Assembly: GCF_056712565.1 (NCBI RefSeq)
Contig: NZ_CM160072.1
DNA length: 64,000 nucleotides
Strand: one strand, 5' to 3'
Under the pieces are notes generated by a model. The model searched no databases and was not told where the DNA came from. It saw only the letters and a list, made by a program, of their open reading frames with translations. A program made the position numbers and the translations under genes. Shown here piece after piece: positions 3,664 through 63,648 of the stretch (within the stretch, counting starts at the first letter, position 1; each line of letters begins with the position of its first letter).

Positions 3664-4898
<1,235 letters not shown>

Positions 4899-4961
4899 AA
4901 CTCGCCCTTTGTCATAGACGTGCTGCGTATTGTTCAGATAATGAGAATCCATTTGTATCAT

Positions 4962-5517
4962 GAAGCACGGTTGTTTTGCGGTAGGTTAAGATCAAAATTG
5001 CGCTGATTAATCCTGGTTATCGGGAGATGCTCGGTGATAAAAAGCGAATTATCTCTCGCCGTAAACAAACTATCGCATGAATATTATCACTATAATGAAT
5101 TTGTTATTTGGCCTTTACGAGTCAGGATAATAGATAGCTGGGCGCGTTTTTTTATGTTAACAAGTTAAAACCATCAGATTTTATTGAATAAATATTGATT
5201 GTGTGATTCCCGCACTCTGCGGGAAGAGATATTATTTAATTATAAATTAAATGAATGAGATTTCTGTTTTTCATTAAGTATTTCTAACAACTTAATGTAG
5301 ATATTTTAAATGTCTCCAGGCTATTTCACCAGGTTATCATTTGATGCTAACCTTCTGACACATGCAGTGGAGTTGTTGTGCAGCAGGAGTATGCTGATAT
5401 GAAAGTGAATGCTAAGGATAATTTATTCGCTTAATCTATTAATTTGCTGGAAATATTTAAGGAATGAATGCCTTGAATAAACCATCATGATTTTTAGACA
5501 GTGGATGTGGAGGAAAT
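4962..5517 (+). promoter_or_regulatory. AT-rich leader/promoter region of the yjjQ-bglJ operon (expected H-NS target)
   Basis: Roughly 550 bp of strongly AT-rich non-coding sequence (runs such as ttatttaattataaattaaatgaatgag) immediately upstream of yjjQ. H-NS silencing and LeuO activation are recalled from the literature, not visible in sequence. Confidence 0.6.
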
Positions 5518-6243
5518 ATGTTGCCAGGATGCTGCAAAAATGGAATTGTTATCAGTAAAATACCTGTTATGCAAGCAGGGTTAAAAGAGGTCATGAGGAC
5601 TCACTTCCCTGAATATGAAATAATATCCAGCGCCTCTGCGGAGGACCTTACCTTATTACAATTACGTCGTTCCGGATTAGTCATTGCTGATTTGGCCGGT
5701 GAAAGTGAAGATCCACGTTCCGTTTGTGAGCATTATTACTCTTTAATCTCACAATATCGGGAAATTCACTGGGTTTTCATGGTGTCACGCTCCTGGTATT
5801 CCCAGGCAGTAGAATTGCTCATGTGCCCTACGGCGACGTTATTGTCTGATGTTGAACCCATTGAGAATCTGGTCAAGACCGTACGTTCCGGCAATACGCA
5901 CTCAGAGCGTATCAGCGCCATGCTGACCTCTCCGGCAATGACTGAAACTCATGATTTTAGCTATCGCTCCGTCATTCTCACTCTTTCAGAGCGCAAGGTA
6001 CTGCGGCTATTAGGTAAAGGATGGGGCATCAACCAGATAGCTTCATTGCTTAAGAAAAGTAATAAAACTATTAGCGCCCAAAAAAACAGTGCGATGCGTC
6101 GACTGGCAATTCACAGCAACGCTGAAATGTATGCATGGATAAATAGCGCGCAGGGTGCAAGAGAACTTAACTTGCCTTCTGTTTATGGAGATGCCGCAGA
6201 ATGGAACACAGCCGAATTAAGAAGAGAAATGTCGCACTCATAG
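5518..6243 (+). CDS. yjjQ: LuxR/FixJ-type transcriptional regulator YjjQ
   Basis: 241-aa ORF; C-terminal LuxR-type HTH ([41 protein letters not shown]). Confidence 0.9.
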
Positions 6244-59117: not shown

Positions 59118-59194
59118 CCTCCCCAAAAGCCTGCCCGTGGGCAGGCCAGGGTAAAAACCAGGGTGCGTTGAAGATATGCGAGCACCTGTAAAGT

Positions 59195-59214
59195 GGCGGG
59201 GATCACTCCCCGCC
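59195..59214. terminator. Stem-loop between dnaJ and the hokC 3' end
   Basis: ggcggggatcactccccgcc perfect inverted repeat; could terminate dnaJ and/or form the 3' structure of the hok mRNA. Confidence 0.5.
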
Positions 59215-59221
59215 GTTGCTC

Positions 59222-59374
59222 TTACTCGGATTCGTAAGCCGTGAAAACAGCAACCTCCGTCTGGCCAGTTCGGATGTGAACCTCACAGAGGTCTTTTCTC
59301 GTTACCAGCGCCGCCACTACGGCGGTGATACAGATGACGATCAGGGCGACAATCATCGCCTTATGCTGCTTCAT
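59222..59374 (-). CDS. hokC: Type I toxin HokC/Gef (small membrane toxin)
   Basis: Translation MKQHKAMIVALIVICITAVVAALVTRKDLCEVHIRTGQTEVAVFTAYESE (50 aa), Hok/Gef family. Confidence 0.93.
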   Translation of the reverse strand: MKQHKAMIVALIVICITAVVAALVTRKDLCEVHIRTGQTEVAVFTAYESE

Positions 59375-59477: not shown

Positions 59478-59985
59478 CTATCTGCCGTTCAGCTAATGCC
59501 TGAGACAGACAGCCTCAAGCACCCGCCGCTATTATATCGCTCTCTTTAACCCATTCTGTTTTATCGATTCTAATCCTGAAGACGCCTCGCATTTTTGCGT
59601 AATCAATCTTTAGTACATTGTTTATTTTAACTCTTATGTGCGTTTTCATTTACAAAAGTTGAGATTATGAACAAGAGGTTTAAGTTATGCCTGAATGGTG
59701 AGTTATTACTGGAGAAAGTAATAGAAGATACAAAATATTCTTGTACAGAATTGAATTTTCTTTTTGTGAGGAAAAATGTTTATAAATCAATGAGTGATAT
59801 TTAAAATCGACACACTTTTTGAAACACGATACCTCCACACCCGGGGGTAAAAGTAATCTGCGATCTCCATCACGCTTTGCCATTCACCTTTAAATATACT
59901 TTCTGAGTCGTTCTTAATCAAAATGAATTATCTGATGTATTGATTTCTATGGAACCATAAAAAAAATGAATGGAGAGCATATTAT

Positions 59986-60747
59986 ATGTCTGCCAAAAGA
60001 CGGCTTCTTATTGCGTGTGCCCTGACAACGATTTTCTATCACCTTCCTGCATATTCTTCATTAGAATATAAAGGTTCCTTTGGCTCAATAAATGCAGGTT
60101 ATGCTGACTGGAATAGTGGCTTCATTAACACTCATCGTGGTGAAGTATGGAAAGTGACTGCAGACTTTGGTGTGAATTTTAAAGAAGCCGAGTTTTACTC
60201 ATTTTATGAAAGCAATGTGCTTAACCATGCCGTAGCGGGGCGTAATCATACCGTTTCTGCTATGACACATGTCAGACTCTTTGACTCCAATATGACTTTC
60301 TTTGGCAAGATCTATGGTCAATGGGATAACTCATGGGGTGACGATCTTGATATGTTTTATGGTTTGGGCTACCTCGGCTGGAATGGTTCATGGGGGTTTT
60401 TTAAACCGTATATTGGATTACATAATCAATCTGGAGACTACGTCTCAGCCAAATATGGACAAACAAATGGCTGGAATGGTTATGTTGTTGGCTGGACAGC
60501 AGTATTACCTTTTACGTTATTTGACGAAAAATTTGTTTTATCTAACTGGAATGAAATAGAACTGGACAGAAATGATGCCTATGCGGAACAACAATTTGGT
60601 CGGAATGGGCTAAATGGCGGTTTAACAGTAGCCTGGAAGTTCTATCCTCGCTGGAAAGCCAGTGTGACGTGGCGTTATTTCGATAATAAGTTGGGCTACG
60701 ATGGTTTTGGCGATCAAATGATTTATATGCTTGGTTATGATTTCTAA
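59986..60747 (+). CDS. Tsx/OmpK-family outer-membrane channel
   Basis: 253-aa ORF; signal peptide MSAKRRLLIACALTTIFYHLPAYS; aromatic/Gly-rich beta-strand pattern (WNGSWGFFKPYIG; WNGYVVGWTAV); C-terminal ...MLGYDF resembling Tsx ...GYNF; RBS tggagag; AT-rich. Confidence 0.7.
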   Translation: MSAKRRLLIACALTTIFYHLPAYSSLEYKGSFGSINAGYADWNSGFINTHRGEVWKVTADFGVNFKEAEFYSFYESNVLNHAVAGRNHTVSAMTHVRLFDSNMTFFGKIYGQWDNSWGDDLDMFYGLGYLGWNGSWGFFKPYIGLHNQSGDYVSAKYGQTNGWNGYVVGWTAVLPFTLFDEKFVLSNWNEIELDRNDAYAEQQFGRNGLNGGLTVAWKFYPRWKASVTWRYFDNKLGYDGFGDQMIYMLGYDF

Positions 60748-60766
60748 TTTTCATCAGGGAATAATT

Positions 60767-62260
60767 ATGCAGAAAACATTAATGGCCAGTTTGATCGGCC
60801 TTGCAGTTTGCACAGGGAATGCTTTTAATCCAGTCGTAGCTGCCGAGACTAAACAACCCAATTTAGTCATCATTATGGCGGATGATTTAGGCTATGGTGA
60901 TTTAGCAACATATGGACATCAGATCGTTAAAACACCCAATATTGACAGGCTTGCCCAGGAGGGCGTCAAATTTACTGACTACTATGCACCAGCTCCCTTA
61001 AGTTCTCCTTCGCGGGCGGGGTTATTAACGGGGCGGATGCCATTTCGTACCGGCATACGTTCATGGATCCCAACGGGAAAAGATGTGGCATTAGGGCGTA
61101 ATGAACTCACGATTGCTAATCTACTCAAAGCGCAAGGGTATGACACGGCCATGATGGGTAAGCTGCATCTGAATGCAGGCGGCGATCGCACCGATCAGCC
61201 GCAGGCAAAAGATATGGGCTTTGATTACTCACTGGTTAATACGGCGGGTTTTGTTACCGACGCCACGCTGGATAACGCTAAAGAACGCCCGCGTTATGGC
61301 ATGGTTTACCCGACAGGCTGGCTACGTAACGGGCAACCCACTCCACGAGCCGATAAAATGAGCGGTGAGTATGTCAGTTCGGAAGTCGTCAACTGGCTGG
61401 ATAACAAAAAGGACAGCAAGCCTTTCTTCCTCTATGTTGCTTTTACCGAAGTGCATAGCCCCCTGGCTTCGCCCAAAAAATACCTCGACATGTACTCACA
61501 ATATATGAGCGCGTATCAGAAGCAGCATCCTGATTTATTTTATGGCGACTGGGCAGACAAACCCTGGCGTGGTGTGGGGGAATATTATGCCAATATCAGC
61601 TATCTGGATGCACAGGTTGGAAAAGTGCTGGATAAAATCAAAGCGATGGGTGAAGAAGATAACACAATCGTTATTTTTACCAGTGATAACGGTCCGGTAA
61701 CGCGTGAAGCGCGCAAAGTGTATGAGCTGAATTTGGCAGGGGAAACGGATGGATTACGCGGTCGCAAGGATAACCTTTGGGAAGGCGGAATTCGTGTTCC
61801 AGCCATTATTAAATATGGTAAACATCTACCACAGGGAATGGTTTCAGATACACCCGTTTATGGTCTGGACTGGATGCCTACTTTAGCGAAAATGATGAAC
61901 TTCAAATTACCTACAGACCGTACTTTCGATGGTGAATCGCTGGTTCCTGTTCTTGAGCAAAAAGCATTGAAACGCGAAAAGCCATTAATTTTCGGGATTG
62001 ATATGCCATTCCAGGATGATCCAACCGATGAATGGGCGATCCGTGATGGTGACTGGAAGATGATTATCGATCGCAATAATAAACCGAAATATCTCTACAA
62101 TCTGAAATCTGATCGTTATGAAACACTTAATCTGATCGGTAAAAAACCAGATATTGAAAAACAGATGTATGGTAAGTTTTTAAAATATAAAACTGATATT
62201 GATAATGATTCTCTAATGAAAGCCAGAGGTGATAAACCAGAAGCGGTGACCTGGGGCTAA
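60767..62260 (+). CDS. Periplasmic sulfatase, Ser-type (S-x-P-S-R)
   Basis: ORF-track frame 60731..62260; ATG at 60767 with RBS aggga; signal peptide MQKTLMASLIGLAVCTGNAFNPVVAAE; N-terminal IIMADDLGYGD and signature APAPLSSPSRAGLLTGR; 19 bp after the channel gene. Confidence 0.85.
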   Translation: MQKTLMASLIGLAVCTGNAFNPVVAAETKQPNLVIIMADDLGYGDLATYGHQIVKTPNIDRLAQEGVKFTDYYAPAPLSSPSRAGLLTGRMPFRTGIRSWIPTGKDVALGRNELTIANLLKAQGYDTAMMGKLHLNAGGDRTDQPQAKDMGFDYSLVNTAGFVTDATLDNAKERPRYGMVYPTGWLRNGQPTPRADKMSGEYVSSEVVNWLDNKKDSKPFFLYVAFTEVHSPLASPKKYLDMYSQYMSAYQKQHPDLFYGDWADKPWRGVGEYYANISYLDAQVGKVLDKIKAMGEEDNTIVIFTSDNGPVTREARKVYELNLAGETDGLRGRKDNLWEGGIRVPAIIKYGKHLPQGMVSDTPVYGLDWMPTLAKMMNFKLPTDRTFDGESLVPVLEQKALKREKPLIFGIDMPFQDDPTDEWAIRDGDWKMIIDRNNKPKYLYNLKSDRYETLNLIGKKPDIEKQMYGKFLKYKTDIDNDSLMKARGDKPEAVTWG

Positions 62261-62308
62261 CCTGATAATCATAATAAATGTAATGTATGCCATTTAGGGC
62301 TATGCCCG

Positions 62309-62346
62309 CCTGATTCAGTGCTACGCATTGAATCAGGTTCTTTTCG
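62309..62346 (+). terminator. Rho-independent terminator after the sulfatase gene
   Basis: cctgattcagtg-ctacgc-attgaatcagg hairpin followed by ttcttttcg. Confidence 0.65.
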
Positions 62347-62388
62347 CGTTGAACAATATCAAGATACGGCTATTCGCAGGGAGTGGAT

Positions 62389-63648
62389 ATGTTTACCAAC
62401 GTAAATGTTGATTGTTGCAAAACACCAGGATGTAAAAACCTGGGGTTGCTGAATAGCCAGGATTATGTCGCACAGGGTAAAAATATTTTATGCCGTGAAT
62501 GTGGTTACTTGTTTCCAGTGATATCTGAACAGTCGCTTAATATTTATCGTAATATTGTGAATCACTCCTGGAGAGGTTTGATTTGCCAATGTTCAACTTG
62601 CGGAGGCACGTCCCTCAAAAAATATGGATATTCTGCACAAGGCCAGAGAAGAATGTATTGCCATCATTGTGAGAAAACATTTATCACTCTGGAACATGTA
62701 ATTACCACACCACGAGGAGCCCTGTTAGCATTGATGATTGAGCAAGGGGAGGCACTTGCGGATATCAGAAAGTCATTACTTCTTAACAGCACTGGACTTA
62801 GCCGTGAACTGTTAAAATTAGCGCGTGAAGCAAACTATAAAGAAAGTCGACAGTGTTTCCCAGCTTCTGATATTACCCTGAGTACCCGCGCTTTTCGCGT
62901 CAAGTATAATGGTAGCAATAACTCTCTTTATGCTCTTGTTACCGCAGAAGAACAAAGCGGCAGGGTGGTTGCCATCTCAACCAATTACTCCCCATCTGCC
63001 GTAGAGCAACATTATCAATACACATCGAACTATGAAGAGCGTATGTCTCCAGGGACGCTGGCACATCATGTCCAGCGCAAAGAGTTACTTACTATGCGGC
63101 GGGATACCTTGTTTGATATTGATTACGGCCCGGCAGTTTTACATCAAAACGATCCGGGAATGTTGGTAAAACCGGTTCTTCCGGCATATCGTCATTTTGA
63201 ACTGGTCAGAATACTGACCGATGAGCATTCCAACAACGTTCAGCATTACCTTGATCACGAATGCTTTATATTGGGCGGCTGCCTGATGGCTAATTTGCAG
63301 CATATTCATCAAGGTCGCTGCCATATTTCCTTTGTCAAAGAGCGCGGTGTGGCACCCGCCACCATTGATTTTCCACCGCGATTATTCCTTAGTGGTGGGG
63401 TACGAAATAATGTCTGGCGTGCATTTTCTAACCGCAATTATTCAATGGCTGTATGCAATCTCACTGGCAGTAAGAAAGTCCGCGAGATGCGGCATGCAAC
63501 ATTGAACAGTGCGACGCGTTTTATCCACTTTGTGGAGAACCATCCTTTCCTTATATCATTGAACCGAATGTCTCCTGCGAATGTCGTTTCTACATTAGAT
63601 ATCCTCAAACATCTGTGGAATAAAAAACTAGAGCATGGAACAATTTAA
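62389..63648 (+). CDS. Hypothetical cysteine-rich protein with two N-terminal transposase-type zinc ribbons
   Basis: ORF-track frame 62383..63648; ATG at 62389 preceded by gcagggag RBS; 419 aa; ribbon 1 CCKTPGC-x19-CREC, ribbon 2 CQCSTCGG-x17-CHHCEKTF (G-x-Q-R-x-x-C-x-x-C-x-K-T-F), followed by about 300 aa with no motif I can assign. Confidence 0.6.
   Translation: MFTNVNVDCCKTPGCKNLGLLNSQDYVAQGKNILCRECGYLFPVISEQSLNIYRNIVNHSWRGLICQCSTCGGTSLKKYGYSAQGQRRMYCHHCEKTFITLEHVITTPRGALLALMIEQGEALADIRKSLLLNSTGLSRELLKLAREANYKESRQCFPASDITLSTRAFRVKYNGSNNSLYALVTAEEQSGRVVAISTNYSPSAVEQHYQYTSNYEERMSPGTLAHHVQRKELLTMRRDTLFDIDYGPAVLHQNDPGMLVKPVLPAYRHFELVRILTDEHSNNVQHYLDHECFILGGCLMANLQHIHQGRCHISFVKERGVAPATIDFPPRLFLSGGVRNNVWRAFSNRNYSMAVCNLTGSKKVREMRHATLNSATRFIHFVENHPFLISLNRMSPANVVSTLDILKHLWNKKLEHGTI

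Follow-up and report, generated by a model that had tools for sequence, protein, structure and literature searches.

The locus and gene X

We analyzed a window of 64,000 nucleotides (contig NZ_CM160072.1 of RefSeq assembly GCF_056712565.1). The window is E. coli DNA, and the region described here is 100% identical to strain ATCC 11775. The order of genes is dnaK, dnaJ, mokC/hokC, a porin of the OmpK/Tsx type, a sulfatase, the gene that we call X, and then nhaA (Table 1). The porin, the sulfatase, and X form an islet, and K-12 has about 107 bp in its place (about 59604-63638).

The initial annotation, which was made from the sequence alone, described X as an uncharacterized protein of 419 amino acids with its own ribosome-binding site, and both statements hold. 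The reading frame extends from the ATG at 62389 to a stop codon at 63646-63648, and RefSeq gives the same coordinates and the same ATG (WP_000494924.1, a hypothetical protein). A GTG at 62383 is unlikely to be the start codon, because the ATG has a Shine-Dalgarno sequence (GGGAG) 5 nt upstream of it and because all of the orthologs begin with MF.

Automated annotation is inconsistent about the orthologs of X. They are named "hypothetical protein," "cytoplasmic protein," "IS1 family transposase," or "zinc-binding domain-containing protein," and occasional frameshifted copies are annotated as pseudogenes of a "transposase." We caution against counting these genes as copies of an insertion sequence in surveys of the mobilome.

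Table 1. Features of the islet and of gene X (coordinates refer to the window)
Feature	Coordinates	Strand	Basis or remark
Islet (porin, sulfatase, X), absent from K-12	59604..63638	.	Alignment with K-12; no terminal inverted repeats (IR) or direct repeats (DR)
Conserved upstream box ACACACTTTTTGAAAC (CAACAy-N4-6-TGACAC as the family consensus), a candidate operator for X	59810..59825	+	Promoter comparison; kept in the ST131-type allele
CRP-like site TGCGATCTCCATCAC (downstream of the box by 33 nt; upstream of the porin ATG by about 117 nt)	59859..59873	+	Promoter comparison
Tsx/OmpK-type outer-membrane channel of the cassette	59986..60747	+	Annotation; Pfam Channel_Tsx in orthologous loci
Sulfatase of the cassette, Ser at the FGly position in Escherichia	60767..62260	+	Annotation; essentially identical to PDB 3ED4
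Hairpin and U-tract after the sulfatase gene	62308..62348	+	Internal attenuator or partial terminator; conserved across genera
Shine-Dalgarno sequence GGGAG of X	62379..62383	+	Read from the sequence; about 20 nt ahead of the ATG kept in four lineages that lost anSME independently
Gene X, encoding a domesticated IS1-like protein of 419 aa (two zinc ribbons, then an HTH and an RNase-H-like domain)	62389..63648	+	ORF, annotation, orthologs at 36-85% identity, model with pLDDT 94
Zinc ribbon 1 (residues 10-38; C10, C15, C35, C38)	62416..62502	+	Cysteines invariant or nearly so; beta-hairpins at 26-43 in the model
Zinc ribbon 2, InsA type (residues 68-94; C68, C71, C91, C94)	62590..62670	+	NF050000, Zn_ribbon_InsA in relatives, hhalign
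HTH region of three helices (residues about 105-153), homologous to that of InsA	62701..62847	+	hhalign through InsAB' residues 5-89; helices in the model
RNase-H-like (DDE-transposase-type) domain (residues about 158-419)	62860..63645	+	Apparently without an intact D-D-E triad

An N-terminal module similar to IS1 InsA

The two consecutive Cys4 zinc ribbons that had been noticed at the N-terminus of X are present and conserved. In 25 orthologs (36-85% identity), the cysteines of ribbon 2 are invariant and those of ribbon 1 are invariant or nearly so. Across a superfamily of 50 members, three of the cysteines of ribbon 2 are invariant, and the other five ribbon cysteines are at least 90% conserved.

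Ribbon 2 had been likened to the ribbons of InsA and of the IS1595 family. The profile searches that were proposed to check this did find homology, of the InsA type. Ribbon 2 barely exceeds the cutoff of the NCBIfam model for the zinc domain of IS1/IS1595 (NF050000; 28.1 bits, with a cutoff of 28; E = 2.3e-6), and 8 of the 50 relatives of X match Pfam's Zn_ribbon_InsA (PF03811) at E ≤ 1e-3. The IS1595 half of the comparison did not stand: the match of X to Zn_ribbon_IS1595 (PF12760) is not significant (E = 1.6), and Pfam finds no IS1595-type DDE domain in X or in the 50 relatives, so X does not qualify as a member of the IS1595 family. For ribbon 1 of X, we looked for a matching family and did not find one. 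A Pfam search with the sequence of X alone gave nothing significant; searches of PDB sequences with X or with the family profile gave just compositional matches to C2H2 zinc fingers; and libraries of defense-system and phage proteins gave no match beyond the ribbon.

More sensitive comparisons extend the similarity beyond the ribbon. We rebuilt the InsAB' sequence from the IS1A of K-12 and compared it with X by using hhalign. Residues 65-146 of X align with residues 5-89 of InsAB' (96.5% probability, E = 8.7e-10), and also with a profile of 13 IS1 members (95%). Because these matches cover both the ribbon and the HTH, the initial annotation was wrong to state that X has no HTH signature. In the structural model of X, this region has helices at 108-118, 123-130, and 134-153. 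Judging from these alignments, residues 65-146 are homologous to the ribbon and HTH of InsA, and a DNA-binding domain is predicted in X by this homology. InsA is a DNA-binding repressor that recognizes the ends of IS1 and represses a promoter.

A C-terminal domain with an RNase-H-like fold

The structure prediction that had been suggested for X, with a search for a DDE fold at the C-terminus, was informative. With an alignment of just the 25 close orthologs, the C-terminal region was modeled by AlphaFold with a pLDDT of 57; once distant relatives were added to the alignment, the pLDDT was 94. This model has a recognizable RNase-H-like fold of the transposase type, with a beta1-beta2-beta3-alpha1-beta4-alpha2-beta5-alpha core and structural similarity to known members. 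The earlier statement that the remaining ~300 residues carry no catalytic signature needs to be revised.

The catalytic triad itself is apparently broken. We placed the catalytic positions by predicted secondary structure and conservation, rather than by 3D superposition. The middle of beta-1, where DDE enzymes have the first Asp, is Thr/Ser166, and the position after beta-4, where they have the second, is Pro262; neither is acidic in any of the 50 sequences. At the start of the helix after beta-5, Glu/Asp291 is found in 100% of the 50 sequences. Since two of the positions are never acidic, we infer that two of the three carboxylates have been lost. The family conserves another set of residues instead: N199, Y211, R238, Y246, H269, H286, H290, E291, and W343.

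Profile comparisons do not link this domain to the IS1 core. None of the 50 family members matches Pfam's DDE_Tnp_IS1 (PF03400), and X scores 19.5 bits against the NCBIfam model for IS1 (NF033558), whose cutoff is 100. Two distant relatives of X match the NCBIfam IS1 model up to position 130-140 of its 199 positions. Aligning the C-terminal region of X to a profile of the IS1 core with hhalign, in local or global mode, indicated no relationship (0.3%; the IS1 core profile is of low diversity). There were no bona fide transposases among the matches listed in the protein search with the family profile.

X is not mobile and is under purifying selection

The suggested survey of E. coli genomes found X in 1275 of 5426 complete genomes. 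Each of these has a single chromosomal copy, no copies are on plasmids, and 1273 of the 1275 copies are full length. We looked for terminal inverted repeats or target duplications at the ends of X and of the islet and found none, which agrees with the initial annotation's observation that no inverted repeats flank the gene. We also considered an active or mobile cassette, and rejected it (no inverted or direct repeats, single copy).

X evolves under purifying selection. The dN/dS ratio is 0.10 between the two alleles from E. coli and 0.08 relative to E. albertii. Orthologs with 36-85% identity are found in Escherichia, Salmonella, Citrobacter, Klebsiella, Kluyvera, Kosakonia, Phytobacter, Scandinavium, Buttiauxella, Franconibacter, and other genera, and the ORFs are intact in every genus that we sampled. 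In other words, X has the hallmarks of a domesticated transposase: it is immobile and single-copy, its synteny is conserved, it is under purifying selection, and it lacks element ends. X is a host gene of long standing that selection maintains, rather than a mobile element.

X belongs to a sulfatase cassette

We used tblastn to mark the neighbors of X in all of the loci that we collected. The sulfatase adjoins X in all 36 loci in which X is at least 32% identical, and these loci come from at least 10 genera and several places on the chromosome, with X either co-directional or convergent. The canonical order is the Tsx-type porin, the periplasmic sulfatase, anSME (a radical SAM/SPASM protein), and X. 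In canonical cassettes, X begins 8-33 nt after the end of anSME, and the two genes are probably co-transcribed. Escherichia, Salmonella, Citrobacter, Klebsiella, Kosakonia, and Phytobacter all have the cassette between dnaJ and nhaA, a shared position that points to vertical inheritance. The cassette lies elsewhere on the chromosome in Scandinavium, Buttiauxella, Franconibacter, C. amalonaticus, and a metagenomic contig. In a low-GC relative (P0066, 33% identity), X is convergent with anSME-sulfatase-porin.

The anSME gene has been deleted independently at least four times: in Escherichia, in K. oxytoca and K. spallanzanii, in P. massiliensis, and in K. intermedia. Each loss left the sulfatase, X, and roughly 20 nt with the ribosome-binding site of X in place. 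We searched the window for a remnant of anSME and did not find one. X is not itself an anSME, as neither Pfam nor NCBIfam finds radical-SAM or SPASM domains in it; it has no known chaperone signature either.

We made several observations about the sulfatase and its surroundings. All of the Escherichia cassettes (the window and loci L002 and L020-L022) encode Ser at residue 79 of the sulfatase (SSPSRAGLLTG) and also lack an adjacent anSME, while 21 loci from outside Escherichia, including those from four anSME-less lineages, have Cys at this FGly position (CSPSR). The Escherichia sulfatase is under strong purifying selection (dN/dS of 0.02-0.03). The sulfatase (60767-62257) is essentially identical to the "arylsulfatase" in PDB entry 3ED4 (1132 bits over residues 6-497), and the cassette's enzyme therefore already has a crystal structure. 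In Citrobacter amalonaticus (L038), the sulfatase is split into two tblastn pieces (4262-4873 and 4915-5763, within 4262-5763), and this gene is possibly a frameshifted pseudogene; in the same locus, both anSME and X seem to be intact. Genes for arylsulfate sulfotransferase (ASST) are found beside the cassette in Salmonella, Citrobacter, Buttiauxella, Franconibacter, and a metagenomic contig (L004, L012, L023, L025, L026, L036, L037, and L039), which suggests a larger module for the metabolism of sulfo-esters. The cassettes of Escherichia and Klebsiella are not flanked by ASST genes. In the Salmonella and Citrobacter cassettes, the inverted Tsx-type porin is followed by a gene of the UshA/CpdB/SoxB type, with Metallophos and 5_nucleotid_C domains (L004 2168-4599; L023, L025, and L026).

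A conserved promoter module and an internal hairpin

To find cis-elements, we used phylogenetic footprinting, that is, an anchored comparison of the cassette promoters. Two elements emerged. One is the upstream box; the other has the form TGnGA-N6-TCAC (59859-59873), which we take to be in agreement with the CRP consensus. The two are separated by 32-34 nt, except in Buttiauxella, where the spacing is 22 nt, or one helical turn less. Both spacings keep the helical phase (three turns, or two in Buttiauxella). The composite pattern occurs 22 times on both strands of the roughly 985 kb of loci that we collected, and every occurrence is at a cassette promoter; shuffled sequence contains an average of 0.2 occurrences. 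The porin gene is inverted at Salmonella-type loci, and there each of the two divergent promoters has the composite module. The ST131-type allele from E. coli retains it intact even though the surrounding sequence is just 85% identical.

As X is the sole predicted DNA-binding protein that the cassette encodes, we infer that it is the obvious candidate to bind the box. The box could be bound by a different protein. The E. coli box departs from that of other genera in that TGAAACAC replaces TGACAC. Given this change and the loss of the cognate anSME, regulation may be modified in E. coli. Two other ideas about the promoter were discarded. Upon inspection by eye, the upstream box is not a -35 element, as there is no -10 at a suitable distance. 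Nor is the promoter an invertible switch: its low coverage is due to allelic divergence (85% identity) and not to inversion.

The initial annotation placed X downstream of a terminator and, on that basis, in a separate transcription unit. The hairpin is there (62308-62338, with a stem of 14 bp followed by TCTTTT), but it does not appear to bound a transcription unit. It is kept, with compensatory changes in the stem, in Klebsiella, Salmonella, Citrobacter, and Kosakonia, where it precedes anSME-X, and we found no good promoter between the hairpin and the ATG of X. For both of these reasons, we interpret it as internal to the operon. It looks like a conserved attenuator or mRNA-stabilizing element that would set how much porin and sulfatase is made relative to anSME and X. 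This hairpin and its U-tract, just after the stop codon of the sulfatase, have counterparts at the equivalent position in L004, L007, L025, and L027-L033, and a smaller GGGC...GCCC hairpin lies ahead of them.

Distant relatives of X

Full-length relatives of X, with 16-30% identity and 400-510 amino acids, are found in Vibrio, Photobacterium, Enterovibrio, Proteus, Serratia, and other genera. Four of these distant relatives have readable contexts, and all four are single genes. P0072 and P0086 are divergent to genes of the 5'-nucleotidase family (UshA/CpdB/SoxB-type), P0084 is divergent to tal-add-deoCABD, and P0098 is divergent to a nupC-type transporter and a nucleoside phosphorylase. Three of the four intergenic regions contain a good CRP-like site. 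Regulators are usually encoded divergently from their target genes. Within this small sample of four, the contexts hint at a link with the scavenging of nucleosides and nucleotides.

A side observation is that proteins of the X family recur beside nucleotidase, nucleoside, or Tsx genes, in the cassettes and among the distant relatives alike.

Comparison with known systems

InsA of IS1 has the same arrangement of a zinc ribbon and then an HTH, and the alignment with InsAB' falls in this part of X. InsA has 91 amino acids and is encoded within a mobile, multi-copy element. X, in contrast, has an additional ribbon at its N-terminus and a C-terminal domain of 260 residues, exists in one copy, and is linked to a host operon; its binding to DNA is predicted. 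The full IS1 transposase, InsAB' (a DDE enzyme), has the same order of modules as X: zinc ribbon, HTH, and RNase-H-like core. However, the core of X is about twice as long and has no similarity to the IS1 core at the level of profiles, and X lacks two catalytic Asp residues, inverted repeats, the frameshift, and mobility. When compared to the catalytic domains of the IS256/Mutator and Tn5 types (ISCth4, 6XG8; Tn5, 1MM8), X is 9-11% identical, its scores are far below the family cutoffs, and the triad is not conserved.

Transposon proteins have become host regulators in other lineages. In plants, FHY3/FAR1 are transcription factors that derive from Mutator-like elements (PMC13306707), and the bacterial regulator TldR derives from TnpB (PMC10705468). 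Both kept a module for recognizing DNA, lost catalysis, and became host regulators. X would share these features if our prediction of a regulatory role is correct, and it belongs to a different lineage of proteins than either of them. In a literature search, whose coverage was incomplete, we found no paper about X, about the regulation of the cassette, or about bacterial regulators derived from DDE transposases. Nor did the search turn up a bacterial DDE transposase core that was recruited as an operon-specific regulator, although absence from a search is not proof.

Proposed role of X and its alternatives

The origin of X as a domesticated IS1-like protein is well supported; it combines a DNA-binding module of the InsA type with an RNase-H-like core that is probably inactive. 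As to what it does, we lean slightly towards a role as the dedicated transcriptional regulator of the sulfatase cassette, acting from the conserved box together with CRP, with the old catalytic domain now used for oligomerization or for sensing an effector. In this scenario, an IS1-like transposase would have been immobilized and recruited by the host. It would have retained the InsA-type zinc ribbon and HTH, with an extra zinc ribbon in front, and without two of the three catalytic carboxylates, it probably would not cut or join DNA. As a fixed member of a four-gene cassette, X would bind the CAACAy-N4-6-TGACAC box upstream of the CRP-like site in every cassette promoter, and X and CRP would jointly control transcription. 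The former catalytic domain would mediate oligomerization and might sense an inducer, with the conserved set from N199 to W343 as its pocket residues. Read-through of the hairpin after the sulfatase would yield a low level of X. The location of X counts against this proposal: encoding a regulator at the 3' end of its own operon is not the most common layout.

X could instead help the sulfatase to mature, for instance as a Cys-rich cytoplasmic chaperone or as a donor of metal or Fe-S that works with anSME on the unfolded sulfatase before export. This would fit with the short distance from anSME to X, with the absolute association of X with the sulfatase, and with the conservation of cysteines in the sulfatase-linked subfamily (the eight in the ribbons as well as C292, C298, and C311). 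Yet X outlasted every deletion of anSME, it shares homology with a DNA-binding protein in its N-terminal module, and its distant relatives adjoin genes for neither a sulfatase nor anSME. The conservation of C292, C298, and C311 does not extend to the superfamily, and X has no signature of a radical-SAM protein or of a known chaperone. We consider a maturation factor to be unlikely. We are a bit more doubtful that X is an enzyme that acts on nucleic acids, such as a site-specific nuclease or recombinase or an RNase for the operon's transcript. The strictly conserved R238, H269, and E291 could, with others, form a non-canonical active site. The fold, the fully conserved E/D291, and several invariant polar residues make this conceivable, and a Foldseek search with the model of X retrieves PIWI domains as well. 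However, two of the three canonical carboxylates are absent from every member; we found no invertible segment, inverted repeat, or direct repeat; the allelic variation in the promoter is sequence divergence and not inversion; and models of defense systems do not match.

The remaining two alternatives concern the transposon origin of X, which the initial annotation had left as a choice between a domesticated regulator and a degenerate transposase. If X were the active transposase of a mobile cassette, with the porin, sulfatase, and anSME as cargo, this would account for the different chromosomal sites in different genera and for the pipelines that label the orthologs as "IS1 family transposase." But there is one copy per genome and none on a plasmid across the 1275 E. 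coli genomes, the islet lacks terminal repeats and target duplications, and six genera share the site between dnaJ and nhaA, which indicates vertical inheritance; also, the positions of the catalytic Asp residues are not acidic, and the score against the NCBIfam IS1 model is far short of the cutoff. We view this as very improbable and largely refuted. Least credible of all is that X is a decaying remnant without a function. The occasional frameshifted pseudogenes might give that impression, but the selection data refutes it: dN/dS is 0.08-0.10, ORFs are intact in all of the genera sampled, many residues are invariant across orthologs with 36-85% identity, and nearly all copies in E. coli are full length. 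Of the two choices in the initial annotation, then, domestication stands, on the basis of selection, synteny, and the lack of element ends; the role in regulation is our prediction.

If X is a regulator, it would clearly exemplify, in bacteria, how a DDE transposase core became an operon-specific transcription factor, with relatives that control other scavenging operons. It would also offer a handle on regulation, and a promoter architecture that can be tested, for the cassette in extraintestinal pathogenic E. coli (ST131, NC101, and UPEC), Salmonella, and Klebsiella. More tentatively, and we would not go beyond calling it possible, X and its relatives in Vibrionaceae, Morganellaceae, and Yersiniaceae might be a new family of transcription factors derived from DDE transposases and a bacterial counterpart of FHY3/FAR1 from plants. 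The dead core would sense a small molecule (perhaps a nucleoside, a nucleotide, or a sulfo-ester), and the InsA-type module would target the CRP-dependent promoters of periplasmic scavenging operons (the sulfatase cassette, 5'-nucleotidases, deo, and nupC).

Variation around the islet within E. coli

The spacer between dnaJ and mokC, beside the islet, seems to attract insertions of the IS4 family. K-12 has IS186 there (L044 1388-2732), and an ST131 strain has an element of the IS421 type in the opposite orientation (L045 2760-3872). In the window, this spacer (about 59118-59222) has neither.

The islet itself is a mosaic. Across the islet (59604-63638; the comparison covered the window, L002, and L045), dS between two haplotypes climbs from 0.09 in the porin to 0.48 in the sulfatase and 0.91 in X. 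Conversely, 918 genomes (ST131, NC101, UPEC, and others) have an allele of the promoter and the 5' part of the porin that is 85% identical to the window, along with an X that is at least 99% identical. These patterns imply that there are recombination breakpoints within the islet.
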